From Eledone cirrhosa (Eukaryota): 64,000 nucleotides of DNA. Under the pieces are notes generated by a model that ran no database searches, was not told the DNA's origin, and saw nothing but the letters and a program-made list of their open reading frames with translations. Each line of letters opens with the position of its first letter. Position 1 is the first letter of the stretch. Below are positions 8,685 through 16,172 of the stretch, piece after piece. The stretch is taken from contig OZ024744.1 of NCBI GenBank assembly GCA_964016885.1, positions 50,034,001-50,098,000 on the forward strand, written 5' to 3'. The translations under genes were made by a program, and so were the position numbers.

Positions 8685-9003
8685 CCAAAATCAATAGACG
8701 TGTCTGAGGAACCTGCCAGAGTAGAGTCAGGTAGATCCACACATGGATCGCACCTAGAGCTGTTCGCCAGGGAAACAATTGTAACACAATAAATTGAGTT
8801 CTGATGCATCACTGACTTTTCGTTTTCCATTCTACATACATACATATATAGAATAGAAAAGGAAAAAATCAGTGATGCATCTGAACTCAATTTATTGTGT
8901 GTTACAATTGTTTCCCCGGGGAACAGCTCGAGACGCGATCATTGTGTGGATCTGTCTGATTCTGGACCCGCAAGTTCGACGGACACGTCTAATGATTTCG
9001 GAG
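8685..9003. repeat. diverged inverted repeat, ~150-bp arms
   Basis: 8685-8833 is an imperfect reverse complement of 8850-9003. Confidence 0.8.
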
Positions 9004-9009
9004 CATTCA

Positions 9010-10164
9010 GAGCATTCAGAGAGATTGCTTTGATGCTGTTGCCTGTACAGTTTGATATGTATTCTGTTTTACCCTCATTGAGATGAAGGCCAATGAAGGC
9101 AGCTGCTTCCTGGAGAGATGTCAAAATTTGTTGCGCATTTTCTAGGTAATCTGCAAGAAGTGCAATGTCATTCAAAAAGTCAAGGTCAGTGATATGTTTA
9201 GAGGGATGCCTAGAGCTCATGCAATGAAAGAATAATAGGGCAAGAGTGTCACCCTGCAGCACTACTGTTGAGATGTCATAGACTCTGTTGGGCCATCAGG
9301 GGTGATGATAGTGGCACTTGTGTTGAGATACAGAGTCTTAATTGCTTCCACAAGTCTTGCCGGTATGCCATACAAGGGTAGAATTTCAAACAGAATGTTT
9401 ATGCTGTCAAAAGCTTTTCTAAAGTCAACAAAAACTAACGCCATTTGTCTGTTGGAGTTTCTCATCTCTTCCACTACTCTTCCCAAGGTGAAAATCTGTG
9501 CAAGTGTAGATCTACCACGCCTAAAACCGTTTTGGTTGATACGAAGGATTGGATCAATATACGGAACTAGACAGTTGAGGATTAGCTTGTTGTAGATCTT
9601 GGCAGCAATGGGCATAAGTGATATTCCCCAGTAGTTTGGGTGAGAGGTCAGCTTTTTGGGGGACAGGAACTATGCCTGCTTTTAGCCAGCTTGGAGGAAT
9701 TTTGTTGCTTAAGGTGTCGTTGCAGATTGATAATAGGACAGAAATCCAACTGGTTTACTGAAAAGTGAAATGACCCAATGCAAAAAAAGACTTTGATGAG
9801 GCATACACAACTGCTCTTGCAGAGTATGTAGAAGGAAAAATAAACAAACTTAAGACCTTTCATGTAAACAAACAGCACACAGCTGTATGAGCTTTAATCA
9901 ACGAAATAACTGGCAGAAAAGAGAAGCCTTCATCCATCATCAAAGGAGGTTCTGAAGAAGCTAGAAAAAAAAGCTGGACTGACCACTTCAAGGACCTACT
10001 GGGCGAACCATCCCTTGTAGAAGACGATCTCCCAAGACGATCACCTGAACTCGACATCTCCACTGGACTTTTCACCTTGAGTGAGATCAACCAGGTGATC
10101 AAAACACTTGAAAATAAAAAAATAACCCGGTCTCGACAACAAACCCAGTATAATTTGGAAAGAC
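9010..10164 (-). mobile_element. RTE-X-like LINE with inverted 5' segment (RT on minus 9010-9743; upstream linker on plus 9744-10164)
   Basis: ISLMPIAAKIYNKLIL, QNGFRRGRST, FVDFRKAFDS, LQGDTLA on minus; INEITGRK..WTDHFKDLLGEP..PGLDNKPSIIWKD on plus. Confidence 0.85.
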
Positions 10165-10255
10165 ATATACATAAACATACATGCATACATATGTATATCT
10201 ATATACATACGTTTACTTTGAATTGTACACAAAATATACCGTAGAATTTACTCAC

Positions 10256-10443
10256 TTAGAAGTCAACACCCTCGAACAACTTGCTATGTCGTTAAAATCG
10301 CACAATGCCTTGAATGATGGGTCATTTTCTCTCCGTATCTCGATATATATTGCATACAAGCTCAGGAAAATTCCGAGGACACTTAAAATGATCCTGTCAA
10401 TGGAATTTCCCATGAATATGTAAAAGATTTCGTAACTTTGCAT
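10256..10443 (-). CDS. VKORC1: vitamin K epoxide reductase complex subunit 1-like, first coding exon (alternative start at 10413)
   Basis: LGIFLSLYAIYIE..DPSFKALCDFNDIASCSRVLTSK matches VKOR TM1 and the loop cysteines (human GLVLSLYAL..ALCD..ISCSRVFSSR). Phase-2 donor AA|GTGAGT at 10255 is at the position of human intron 1. Acceptor TTTTTGCAG ends at 10458. Confidence 0.9.
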
Positions 10444-10465
10444 TATTTGAGCACGATCTGCAAAA

Positions 10466-10512
<47 letters not shown>

Positions 10513-10513
<1 letters not shown>

Positions 10514-11242
10514 TTTCATTTATTAGCCACAAGGGCCGACATGTAGGGGACAATACAAAGACAGGGACAGTGGGGGTTTACAATAAGGTCGAGTAAAAGT
10601 GCACAATGGCAAGACTAATTTAACAATGAAAATATAAAAATATAAAATAAACTATGCATAAATATAACAAAATAAATTCCCCGATAGGGGGTGGACGACC
10701 CTGGGGTGATTCGGGTACCCCACCAATCCTGAACCACCCTGCGCTTCTAGGGCACCCAGGAGAGCACCCCTCTCCTCAAGTTAGCCAGCCTATAGGCGCA
10801 TGGTCAGAGTAGGCCCATTCACACGAGCCATTCTCGCCACATTCACCCACCTTTTAGCAAATGTACTGGGGGGCAGCACTTCTCTCTCCACCCTCACCCT
10901 CCTTTCCAGGTGAAACTTGAAGAAGTTGATGAGGGATTGGCCGAAGAGAAAGTGTCTGTCTTTAGTCCTTTCAACCTGGTCCACCATATAATCTCTTTCG
11001 CAACTGCCACCAGACAGAGGAAAATGTCCTGCTCTTCCTGACCTAAGGAAGGTGGCGGCTCGATCTTCACTATGGACTCGTCCGATAGTCGGATTCGTTC
11101 CACACACGACAGTAGCTGTTCGACATAACTCCACAAGTCAGTAATGCACGGACATTGGACAAGTGCGTGCAGAACGGTTTCGTCGTTCTGTGCGCATCTT
11201 GGACAGGTCCGTCTGACAGCACTTCCGTGCCTGTAGAGTTTA
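10513..11242 (-). mobile_element. Tx1/L1-clade LINE 3' end inserted in a (TAA)n tract
   Basis: CPRCAQNDETVLHALVQCPCITDLW zinc knuckle, AKEIIWWTR; (TAA)n at 10469-10511 and 11243-11258. Confidence 0.8.
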
Positions 11243-11901
11243 TAATAATAATAATAATATTGTTAAGAAAAGGGGGCGATATCCAATTTTAGCGGTCTAA
11301 ATGCCGCTTACTTGCTGTAGTTGCTGCTTACTTCAATGTATGAGGCTATTCCAACAAATTTACATTCCCCTTTTTTTAGCCGTTAAAAGAAATATAGATT
11401 TATTTATTGTTTTTTTTTTTGCGATTTATTTGCCACTGGGGCATAGATTTCTTTATTTGTCCCTTTTTTGCGATTTATTAGCCTTTTGGGGTCACACACA
11501 CCCTCGTAGAAAGTGTGCGACCTTTCTGCCAGGGAGCACAGAGAGAGGGGGGTGCTCCCTTCTTCTCTTATCTGTACAAGCCGATATAGAGAGATGGCCC
11601 ACTTACACGGGCCATTATTGTTACTTTCACCAATCTTTCATGGAATTGGCTGGGACTGAGTGCCTTTTTCTCCACCTTGATCCTTCTTTTGAAGTGGAAT
11701 CGGAAGAAGAGGACCATTTGTTGGCCGGCGACATATCCCTACAGCTTCCTCGTTGCAAACGCATCTGGGACATTTCTTTTCCAAGGGGTTTCCGTCCCGG
11801 AATCCGTGTCTGTAGAGCCTTTCCCGAACGGGCAGGGCCCCTCGGTATAATAGTAAGTATTAGTGGTTGTAATAAAAATGCAATCAAAATGTAATAAATA
11901 C

Positions 11902-12037
11902 CTTCACTGATTTCTTTCCTTATATTATCAACAGAAGTTGGTATGTCACCCAAAGTTCGCTTTGTATGTTCCCGAATAGCAGTGAATTTTGATAAAACTG
12001 TTTCTAATTCCTTCTCCACAGTAAGACAAATATCCAT
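11902..12037 (-). pseudogene. RMND5: RMND5/GID2 (CTLH complex E3 subunit) first coding exon, captured copy 1
   Basis: MDICLTVEKELETVLSKF vs human RMND5A MDQCVTVERELEKVLHKF; ends GAA G|GTATTT; possible acceptor TTTACAG at 12143. Confidence 0.8.
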
Positions 12038-12191
12038 GTGTAGTCCAAAAAGATATAAATCTTCTGTATTATTATTTTCTTTTTCTGTAAATAATTATTT
12101 TTCTATATATCTCAAACCCTGCCAAACACCACATCTGTCCATCTGTAAATTTAAATGACTATTCTTTCATACTTATCCTCTTCAACTACAC

Positions 12192-12327
12192 ATGGATATT
12201 TGTCTTACTGTGGAGAAGGAATTAGAAACAGTTTTATCAAAATTCACTGCTATTCGGGAACATACAAAGCGAACTTTGGGTGACATACCAACTTCTGTTG
12301 ATAATATAAGGAAAGAAATCAGTGAAG
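12192..12327 (+). pseudogene. RMND5: RMND5/GID2 first coding exon, captured copy 2 (inverted duplicate)
   Basis: Same 45 codons and donor G|GTATTT; only ~7 nt of upstream sequence shared with copy 1. Confidence 0.8.
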
Positions 12328-13585
12328 GTATTTATTACATTTTGATTGCATTTTTATTACAACCACTAATACTTACTATTATACCGAGGGGCCCTGCCCG
12401 TTCGGGAAAGGCTCTACAGACACGGATTCCGGGACGGAAACCCCTTGGAAAAGAAATGTCCCAGATGCGTTTGCAACGAGGAAACTGTGGGGATATGTCG
12501 CCGGCCAACAAATGGTCCTCTTCTTCCGATACCACTTCGAAAGAAGGATCAAGGTGGAGAAAAAGGCACTCAGTCCCAGCCAATTCCATGAAAGATGGGT
12601 GGAAGTAGCAATAATGGCCCGTGTAAGTGGGTCATCTCTCTATATCGGCTTGTACAGGTAAGAGAAGAAGGGAGCACCCCCTTCTCTCTGTGCTCCCTGG
12701 CAGAAAGGTCGCACACTTTCTACGGGGGTGTGTGTGACCCCAAAAGGCTAATAAATCGCAAAAAAAAAAAAATAAAAAATAAAAAAGGGGCAAATAAAGA
12801 AATCTATGCCCCAGTGGCAAATAAATCGCAAAAAAAAAACAATAAATAATTCTATATTTCTTTTAACGGCTAAAAAAGGGGGAATGTAAATTTGTTGGAA
12901 TAGCCTCATACATTGAAGTAAGCAGCAACTACAGCAAGTAAACGGCATTTAGGCCGCTAAAATTGGATATCGCCGAAAAGGGTACTAACTGATATAGAAA
13001 TTGATCAGATCAAGCAATTAGCACAAAGTCAGCGAAGGGAAAATGAAACATGTGTCAGTGAAAGGAGGTAAATTGTAACACTTCGAATCCCAGGGTTGTG
13101 GCGGAAGTAATTGTTTAAATATAAGTGTCCGAAATAGTTTATGAACATAAGCTCGTTCGCGTGTTATGTAATTTAAGGTTTAAAAATCACAAACAGCTAT
13201 GTGTGTTTTATAAAAATAATAAATACGACAATATATAAACTTACTCAAAAGTAACTAAAGACTATAAATATTTTTGTGCATTATATTTACGAGGTTCATA
13301 GCAATACTTAATCATTAGAGGTTGCCCGGTTACCTCGCTGCTGTCTTTTGCTCTGATGTTTGCTCGGTTGTTCACCCCTTCCTTTTCATTTTCTTTAATA
13401 TTGTAACATTAATAGAATATATCCTTCTGAAAAAATCGTGAGCAATTCATAATGTTATCTAAGCATTTGTAATGTAATTTATGTATATATTTAAAACATA
13501 TTGGTTATGCTATTCTACTGTAAAATTATTTATATGCTTTGTATAATAAAGATACTTAATTGTATTTATTATATGTGTTTATATT

Positions 13586-13690
13586 TTCCCGCCGAGGTTG
13601 ACTTTGCCTTTCATCCTTACGGGGTCGATAAAATAAAGTACCAGTAATGCACTGCGTATTACTGGCCTTGTGCCTAAAGTAGAAACAATT
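13586..13690 (+). mobile_element. tRNA-SINE, 3' fragment
   Basis: ACTTTGCCTTTCATCCTTACGGGGTCGATAAAATAAAGTACCAG central domain. Confidence 0.85.
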
Positions 13691-14085
13691 AGATGTGTTT
13701 ATATTTTCATTCTATAAGTTTTAAGGATTATAAACAATTTGTAATGTTATTTATACAACTGAGGATAAAACACACATGCTCTTTTGCAAAGTCTTCCCCA
13801 CATTGACTATCATTTTTACAAGGTTTTCAAAATAGTTGACAATCTTGTGGTAGGGGTATAAAAACACACGTGTCATTGTGTAATCACACACTTACATAGG
13901 TATACAAATATACTTACCGTGAGCATGTATATAAATTGTTTCGCAGTGTAGCCAAGGGGAGACGACTGCTCTATTCCTTCCAACGACAACTGTAAAGCTG
14001 ACTGTCTCTGCCCAATTGTGATATATATTTATATACTGTAAATAAAACCCTTTTTGTACAGCCGACCATGTTATTCTTCACTTTT

Positions 14086-14153
<68 letters not shown>

Positions 14154-15065
14154 TAAACATGTATTGAGAATAAACAATTATAAATAATCAAATCATACAC
14201 ATCCACACACACATATGTGTGTGGATGTGTGGATGTGTTTTATTATTTATAATTGTTTATTCTCAATACATGTTTCACTCACAGAGTTGACTTAAAAACC
14301 ATTGATAATTACATAAATATAAAGAAGAAAGATAAAAATAAAATTAATGGGAAAAGGGGAAAGGTGTATAGAAGGGCAGATCAGGCTATTATATGTGTGT
14401 GTGTGTTCGAGTGTATTTGAATATATGTGGCTTCTCTTCTTATTTTCCCTTCTAATTAATTTTCATCGATTTTCTTTTTCTGGACCTTTACTGGCTTCAG
14501 TCAGTTACTAGTCATGCTGGGGCACTGCCATTGAGAGAGATTTAGGGTGAACTTAAGGTAGATACAACTACCGTTTATGAATTAGAAATTTTAGCTGTTG
14601 AACAAACAGGTGACGATCGATCACCGGCTCATCTTCAAATCGGGCCGTTTGTTTACAAACGAATCGAACATTATTATTAATGTTCGATATAACCCATACG
14701 TATATGTATATATGTGAATATATATATATGTGTGTACGTGTGCATACTTACACCCACCCACCCTCTCACACACACACACACAAATATATATATATATGGT
14801 TTCAGTTGATCCCTAAAAGGGTGTAGCAGCGATTCTTTGCTTAAACCTTAATCTATACATATAAGTATTTGCTCTACGGGTTATATATATATATATAAAA
14901 TAACAAAATAAGATGTTGATGTTACATATATCGTTTAATCATAATAATTATTTCCATGGTTCTCCATGCATTTGCTGTTGGTTATGAGAACGGAATCCTG
15001 AGATGAAAATCGATGTTTGATATGTCGCTGGCAGGAAAAACACGTCTTAATGCCTGTGTGCCCAG

Positions 15066-15113
<48 letters not shown>

Positions 15114-16172
15114 CTAGCAGAGGTACCCGGCGTTGCTCGGGTATTAAATAGCAGTTGTGTATACCATTTATGTCAATACTTCAGTGCTGCTTCGAAAACT
15201 ATACTTTTACAAAATCACCGGCTTTTTCCAAAAGGAGGTTCCTGCCCCCAGGAGTACCCTACTCAATATGTGCCAATTCTGAGTGTTCACATTCATCTGT
15301 AGGACAAACGTAGCCCATGTGTCAAGTTTTGTGAAAATCGGTTGCGAACTCCAGAAGTTATGACATTTTGTTGCATTGCACTGCAGTGCTTTAGTCGACT
15401 CCAAGGAAGTGGTTAAAGGGGGTTATCTGCCGGGAGGCCCTATATTCAATATCTGGAAAAATTAAAGTGTCCATGACCATCCGGACTGCATAAGTAACCT
15501 ATGTCTTAAGTTTGGTGAAAATACTATAGAAATGCATAAGGTTTATAGATACGCGCGTGCGTGCGTGCATGTGTGTGTGGGTGTGTATGTATTTGTGTGT
15601 GCGTATGTATGTGTATGTCCGTCGGGGCATACGTATGTACTGGCCTAAATCTTCACTATTTACTTTTACTATTTTAATAACCTCTGTCATTTTCGTTTTC
15701 AATTTTATTTACATTCATTCTTAAACTCCGGGGCTGGAAATCATTCTGTTATTTTAAATAGAATATTAGTCTAACGACTCCATTTATACCATAACCTTGG
15801 TCTTGTCTTTGCATGAAATTGTTCTTTACGATCCACATAACGACGTATTATCCTCGCTTTTTTTCCTTTCATTACCAGGGAACGTCTTCACGAACCAAAA
15901 TATCGTCTTCCTGTTTTCCTTCGCTTGCAACGTTTCTCGAAATATTTACTTCTGCGTTCACAGATTACTCTCAGTTCAATTTGAATGGGAAATTCCTGTT
16001 TCATCGATTTTCTCCGTAACCATGTAAGCTTGTAGCTTGAAAGTCGACCCAACGCCTCCTCGGAACATTCTGCATAACTGTAAATTTTCGCTGCATTCCA
16101 CCAAGCTGTTTCGACGTTTATCGACTACACCTACATATACAACGTCCGACCACTTCCAATTTATATAGTAGA
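15114..16172 (-). mobile_element. non-autonomous Helitron
   Basis: Minus strand A|TCTACTATATAAA ... hairpin CCCGAGCAACGCCGGG, 8 nt, CTAG|T. Confidence 0.75.

Follow-up and report, generated by a model that had tools for sequence, protein, structure and literature searches.

Does the 1.7-kb inverted structure that places an RMND5 exon on both strands of an Eledone cirrhosa contig belong to a mobile element family, how did it come by its cargo and its symmetry, and does it act on the gene from which that cargo came? These questions arise from a sequence-only reading of a 64,000-nucleotide stretch (hereafter the window; GCA_964016885.1, contig OZ024744.1, positions 50,034,001 to 50,098,000, forward strand), which had proposed a Pack-TIR-like foldback transposon.

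Structure of the window element

The element spans positions 11275-12974 of the window (1700 bp, no strand as a whole; C28:50,045,275-50,046,974), has the termini GGCGAT...ATCGCC and lies between two exact copies of an 8-bp target-site duplication (TSD), GAAAAGGG, at 11267-11274 and 12975-12982 (+ strand), a TSD length that holds family-wide. Its arms, 11275-12044 (770 bp) and 12185-12974 (790 bp), pair across a 140-bp spacer; arm lengths, spacer, ends and TSD are all as first proposed. From the outside inward, each arm consists of an end region, ~370 bp of LINE sequence, 48 nt of RMND5 intron with its GT donor, and a 136-nt exon. The left arm, on the - strand, comprises a Merlin end and subterminal region that is an inverted copy of the right end (11275-11479), a LINE fragment from the zf-RVT region with an internal deletion (11480-11850), the first 48 nt of the RMND5 intron beginning at the GT donor (11854-11901), and the first coding exon of RMND5 with six derived amino-acid changes (11902-12037, 136 nt). 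The right arm, on the + strand, runs from the same exon, ATG to donor (12192-12327, 136 nt), through the intron start with its GT donor (12328-12375) and the LINE fragment (12379-12749) to the Merlin subterminal region and end (12750-12974). The arm piece is assigned to a LINE because its longer form, in locus L094, matches zf-RVT (E 1.8e-9). Between the arms, a fold-back/deletion junction with a 3-bp AGT microhomology (12042-12044, no strand), exact at 37 sites, adjoins the unpaired spacer (12045-12184, +), which holds ~17 bp of Merlin 3' flank followed by RMND5 5' sequence from which 16 bp present in the host are deleted. The window copy contains no transposase, and no Rfam match was obtained in 9000-15500.

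Sixteen substitutions and two indels (of 1 and 21 bp) separate the two arms, all confined to the outer part; over 299 bp (11746-12044) the match is perfect. This inner identity, together with the absence of a contig spanning the whole element, would suit a mirror artefact of the assembly, or an inverted duplication that arose by chance at a single locus; however, the outer arms differ, the same junction recurs at 37 sites with different flanks, and 16 of the 25 bounded copies bearing it have an exact 8-bp TSD. Copy number thus refutes this explanation, whose remaining probability is vanishingly small, and the earlier view of a real palindrome with diverged arms is upheld.

Six of the nine derived substitutions scored in the left arm (11296-11745) are C>T on one strand, five of them outside CpG, an excess that involves small numbers and possibly reflects single-strand damage. 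The 3' part of a zf-RVT LINE (10897-11243, -) adjoins the element and belongs to the same clade as its LINE cargo; the two share only 67% DNA identity, and the neighbour is therefore not the cargo donor. Elsewhere, a 38-bp inverted repeat (97%) with a 45-bp spacer lies beside a TA microsatellite (14155-14275), and just beyond the right end of the window a 487-codon open frame (L180:5599-7059, +) with a reverse transcriptase and a weak GIY-YIG match is Penelope-like.

A multicopy Merlin family

Genome searches yielded 527 candidates with the outer arm and 115 with the exon region, of which 40 each were scored. Exact patterns were found at 37 fold-back junctions and 150 terminal 22-mers, and a 26-mer specific to the element-type exon occurred 100 times at 71 loci, with no occurrence in controls in any case. 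Including a sister subfamily nested in hAT elements, the total comes to at least 122 exon copies at 84 loci. Among 68 distinct bounded elements in the loci examined, 49 had an exact 8-bp TSD and nine had one with a single mismatch, whereas none had an exact TSD of 6, 7, 9 or 10 bp and only two of 4556 cross-pairs matched. The outer arm is thus multicopy, with 8-bp TSDs and with RMND5 and LINE sequence as cargo. An empty site for the window copy was not seen among the joints listed.

A search with PF12762 (DDE_Tnp_IS1595) located Merlin transposases beside some of the exon matches (L083, E 6e-8; L078, E 4e-15), and the same ends and cargo flank such a transposase in more than ten loci. The sequence-only reading had noted neither these transposase-bearing relatives with their cargo nor the second, LINE-derived cargo of the arms. 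Both ends of the window element start with 5'-GG, as in Merlin, for which a finer terminal consensus is GGNRM. GG ends, an 8- or 9-bp TSD and a PF12762 transposase define Merlin in the available part of PMC8101967, and all three are present here, with TSDs of 8 bp. None of the 12 transposase starts read (14 loci) gives a full open reading frame, no active source being seen among them, and the D, D and E residues of the family's transposase presumably lie where known DDE motifs would place them.

Mutator-type elements (Pack-MULE/FB) carry a Mutator transposase and 9-11-bp TSDs, and 8-bp TSDs also fit hAT. Although long arms with captured cargo recall MULE/FB elements as far as these are described in the available text of PMC8277862, the transposase linked to these ends and this cargo in more than ten loci is of the IS1595 type, which refutes a Mutator-like or hAT identity, and the TSDs are never 9 or 10 bp. 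We regard such an identity as highly improbable; the preference for Merlin over MULE voiced at the outset is supported.

No cargo-free family member occurs among the close matches, and the capture junctions and mechanism are therefore not readable directly. Nine more distant relatives (68-77%) have neither RMND5 nor the shared ends, and a homologue search with the transposase returned nothing closer than 61% identity.

Family members have repeatedly inserted into one another (L157, L158, L182, L183 and L037/L038), in L158 within the RMND5 exon and beside its donor. The TSD and the near flanks of L095 recur at L157, which lies on another contig. Four incomplete copies with the same flank (L185-L188, on C10, C11, C15 and C19) lie within ~1 Mb of listed contig ends or on the coordinates' short arms and likely spread by segmental duplication rather than transposition.

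RMND5 cargo and its parent gene

By itself the element exon is hard to place: its 45-aa peptide matches human RMND5A weakly (E 0.036) and gave no Pfam match and no homologue in a homologue search. A CTLH-domain search of the same genome led to the parent RMND5 on C5, where positions 79,536,190-79,536,519 align with the element at 89% identity over 330 columns, intron included. Exon 2 of this locus matches RMND5A (E 1e-12), the peptide of its exon 1 is identical to that of Octopus and Argonauta RMND5A, an identity that assigns the genome to the octopods, and the two exons join in frame; the cargo is identified as RMND5 on the strength of these matches. A 1435-nt contig of run X4 joins RMND5 exons 1, 2 and 3 with zero differences, and the run is treated as RNA because of this contig. 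The parent gene is therefore intact and expressed, and the element does not hold the only RMND5 exon 1, spliced to downstream exons, an outcome that would have spoken against a captured copy. The first coding exon with its GT donor and intron was confirmed in both arms, on both strands. Capture at the DNA level, as had been claimed, is borne out by the retained intron, 48 nt in the window copy and ~85 nt in L094, L162 and L164; in the longest family forms the RMND5 piece reaches ~380 bp including intron.

Thirty element RMND5 pieces differ from one another by 1.5% and from the host by 6.9%, sharing 20 near-fixed substitutions and the 16-bp deletion. This one common set of differences suggests a single capture, which would have taken place well before the burst of copies. 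Six coding changes in the element exon, all non-synonymous, are absent from Octopus and Argonauta RMND5, and the exon appears to have decayed without constraint. A tree of the pieces resolved only the split between host and elements with good support; no inner branch was well supported, and the bootstrap had not settled. A copy on C5, 2.4 Mb from the parent, was considered as founder and rejected as an ordinary deleted derivative. The exon in the window copy is likely a neutral passenger, whose demonstrable side effect is that an ATG-exon-GT donor unit is offered on both strands.

Element pieces were also recovered from runs X5 and X6, labelled as two other organisms. Compared over window positions 10900-13400 and L177, these consensus-like contigs, which give single-locus estimates and may represent contamination, differ from the window at 0/142, 3/265, 0/104 and 3/240 positions, whereas the RMND5 regions of the same runs differ at 13/178 and 30/412. 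Horizontal transfer or introgression is a rather unlikely source of this pattern. Depth at the ends relative to inner sequence is not a reliable test for contamination, given that family ends are only ~1.5 times as frequent as exons in the genome.

Origin and maintenance of symmetry

All members examined are built from one half-unit on one or both strands, in the order centre, 5' UTR, Merlin transposase, RMND5 piece, LINE piece and end; transposase-bearing relatives accordingly read transposase, RMND5, LINE, end. The half-unit covers ten of 13 bounded elements fully, the window copy included, and the other three differ by internal insertions and not by a distinct left end. Locus L083 is a complete 3.8-kb palindrome in which two divergent transposases, both with the same two stop codons, point away from a short quasi-palindromic centre. 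Both arms of a 1.3-kb sister palindrome contain the long form of the intron, and the left sides of lopsided copies are different inverted pieces of the right half. Unique left-end sequence was found in none of the longer relatives examined, which suggests that the master was likely a whole head-to-head palindrome that deletions later shortened and that copying between the arms kept symmetric.

Arms were compared in 14 near-full copies among the 25 bounded junction-bearing ones; the other 11 were left out because of their arm length. In these 14, no fixed substitution distinguishes left from right arms, and arm distance is 1.55% within copies against 1.9% between them. Variants with two carriers, counted outside a T-rich zone of 120 bp, fell in both arms of one copy in nine of 21 cases, against 0.8 expected (share 0.037; P 2.6e-8). 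By this comparison of sequences, symmetry is being maintained between the arms. The copying is patchy: 90 private variants are one-armed, and of five long palindromes L083, L087 and L159 have their own arms closest, whereas in L081 and L095 these are not closer than the arms of other elements. By analogy with what is proposed for maize Mu, the route is likely to be break repair from the opposite arm.

The window subfamily probably derives from one deletion joined at the 3-bp microhomology. In the scheme that we favour, template switching or gap repair would have placed the RMND5 piece downstream of the transposase stop codon in one arm, and the second arm would have acquired it, along with subsequent deletions and point changes, through repair templated by the first. 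The 1.7-kb subfamily would then have been founded when a central deletion, closed at the microhomology, took out the two transposase genes together with the central promoter region, and it would have amplified, generating 8-bp TSDs, through movement in trans by the family's transposase. The window element is most probably such a non-autonomous Merlin copy, likely derived from the palindromic master by internal deletion and likely moved in trans.

Symmetry could also have come after capture. An asymmetric Merlin would then have taken up RMND5 close to the right end, and fold-back copying of the right half, with the native 5' hairpin as primer, would later have replaced the left end on several occasions. 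Lopsidedness is indeed seen in the three transposase copies with long cargo (L094, L162 and L164), whose left side is short or incomplete; many palindromes pivot at the same quasi-palindromic centre; and maize Mu elements are proposed, in the available part of PMC10401008, to regain symmetric ends in this way. No full palindrome with long cargo and transposase was found. Lopsided copies of this kind also fit mirroring after capture. On the other hand, L094, L161 and L162 each have a left side made of a different inverted right-half piece, none with unique sequence, the long intron form lies in both arms of the 1.3-kb sister, and a second Merlin family of this genome is a whole palindrome as well (L082, L084 and L085). 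We consider this course unlikely, if still a serious competitor, and retain the palindromic master.

The second Merlin family, only distantly related, is palindromic over the whole element, has 8-bp TSDs and contains two divergent transposase genes (L082:2751-6035, L084:2943-5988 and L085:2971-5807). Whole-element palindromy is not general in Merlin, since at 19 top-scoring Merlin loci from other families the inverted repeats within 3.4 kb are all short.

Predicted hairpin formation and the host gene

The sequence-only reading had envisaged a read-through hairpin containing RMND5 double-stranded RNA (dsRNA) that might act on the parent gene. The first part stands: if transcribed through, the element would fold with 764-779 arm-to-arm pairs and a 299-bp perfect stem. 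The second is so far not supported: only 22 of the 279 duplex 21-mers match host mRNA exactly. Endo-siRNA action in particular is made a weak proposal by the reported absence of a dedicated pathway in molluscs, where DICER2 and siAGO are described as lost (PMC11114477) and a survey including an octopus found no endo-siRNAs (PMC12479628), in each case as far as the available text of these sources goes, and no host gene was found nearby. Among the 100 longest of 180 candidate open reading frames in the window and 10 kb on each side, no host-gene domain was detected and the domains present are of retroelement type only.

Regulation of RMND5 by the element, through siRNA, piRNA or ADAR recruitment that would lower or edit host mRNA, draws some strength from the extent of arm pairing and from the 96 of 279 duplex 21-mers that match host mRNA with at most one mismatch. 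RNA-like run X4 also contains contigs with element alleles, at a depth of 31.5 compared with 99.5 for host mRNA, and captured fragments can silence donor genes in maize according to the available portion of PMC13317346. Yet that X4 depth could be background from ~100 copies, and the contigs over the element are unstranded, none spanning both arms. Besides the mollusc reports, the paucity of exact 21-mers and the lack of a neighbouring host gene, the central promoter region is missing from the 1.7-kb form, the exon decays neutrally, and the antisense strand would probably be hidden in cis by the fold-back. We judge a regulatory role decidedly improbable and keep to the neutral passenger.

One X4 contig runs from a family terminus into the unique flank of a 768-bp copy (L019, C28:55.92 Mb), and at least this family member likely lies in transcribed DNA.

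An RMND5 donor upstream of a hAT transposase

Two X4 contigs depart from the element exon precisely at the donor; their consensus is mixed, and host exon 2 is one of its components. When host exon 2 was subtracted, the tie-break being alphabetical in 17 of 17 columns, the residual pattern had seven matches in the genome and none in controls. All seven are preceded by a pyrimidine tract and TAG, and the deduced acceptor sequence, which comes from the loose end of one contig in this one run, yields the same agreement, 0.53, as had been reported. A hAT transposase has its ATG 11 nt downstream of this acceptor. An RMND5 donor is found upstream in six of the seven loci, at 535-544 nt in five and 1842 nt in one, and this co-location makes a chance splice signal unlikely.

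The donor resides in the 1.3-kb sister Merlin palindrome, which is flanked by an 8-bp TSD of its own, has the family alleles and is devoid of the LINE piece. Its hosts form a 4.4-kb hAT family (L208-L214; for example L210:3434-7872, and C2:364.15 Mb) with 15-bp terminal inverted repeats (TIRs), exact and distinct 8-bp TSDs in five of seven copies, and an intact 883-codon transposase frame in two of seven (PF05699 and PF14291). In this family the nested palindrome, upstream of the transposase exon, has one shared TSD; a marker of the sister subfamily occurs 22 times at 13 loci, and an exact pattern for the empty site of the nested insertion had no matches. The RMND5 donor of the sister subfamily, though not that of the window copy, is likely spliced onto the hAT transposase exon, and the predicted product has a 31-codon upstream open reading frame ending 6 nt before the transposase ATG.

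We tentatively entertain the broader possibility that palindromic Merlins serve as exon-mirroring vehicles. Anything captured in one arm would be copied into the other, each insertion would offer an ATG-exon-splice donor on both strands, and the RMND5 exon may in this manner have been relayed to hAT as a leader tuning its activity.

Relation to known systems and significance

The family shares GG ends, 8-bp TSDs and a PF12762 transposase with the Merlin superfamily, which is abundant in Octopus bimaculoides (PMC8101967). The sections of that source available give TIRs of 24-462 bp and mention no cargo; the family's arms (770-1900 bp) exceed this range, but 1000-bp TIRs are tabulated there for two zebrafish entries, Merlin-1_DR and Merlin-N5_DR. 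Unlike the Merlins so described, the present family combines a whole-element palindrome, two divergent transposases, and host-gene and LINE cargo inside the arms.

With Pack-TIRs, as far as PMC8277862 describes them in its available parts, the family shares DNA-level capture from a parental host locus with the intron kept, and spread by transposition to sites remote from the parent, several copies having distinct TSDs. Examples there include the frog Pack-hAT-N8_XT, with three copies where the present family has at least 122 exon copies at 84 loci, and Drosophila Ssk-FB4; the main text does not mention Merlin, which in the supplements searched appears only as a column head. Pack-TIR cargo lies between the transposon ends in that account, whereas here it is duplicated in the arms, also on transposase-bearing members, and its likely relay into hAT sets the family further apart. 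In maize Mu homomorphs one end is copied onto the other, giving long near-perfect arms (PMC10401008, available part), likewise here; unlike in Mu, which belongs to another superfamily, arm copying in the present family carries cargo, deletions and stop codons, up to a whole half-element. Neither a prior description of the family nor a multicopy gene-carrying Merlin was found in the literature searched; subscription papers, Repbase entries or bioRxiv supplements could hold a description of the family.

The hairpin-RNA silencers Mu killer in maize and hpRNAs in Drosophila are likewise inverted duplications with gene sequence from which long dsRNA is possible, and the clade of the host is known for heavy RNA editing. 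In contrast to those silencers, the present hairpin is known from sequence and stands in a phylum reportedly without siRNA machinery (PMC11114477 and PMC12479628, available text); the element provides a defined long-dsRNA substrate in a clade reported to have no endo-siRNAs.

Multicopy gene-carrying DNA transposons are rare in animals, with four multicopy Pack-TIR cases in a 100-genome survey according to the available text of PMC8277862. Here, forms that range almost without gaps from transposase-bearing palindrome to short derivatives make arm copying and cargo spread datable and measurable in one genome, across which more than 120 copies of a ubiquitin-ligase first exon with its splice donor have spread. 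One lineage appears to use the RMND5 donor in the mRNA of another transposon; if the tentative relay is correct, a host exon would have passed through two transposon superfamilies to become a leader that tunes hAT's own activity.
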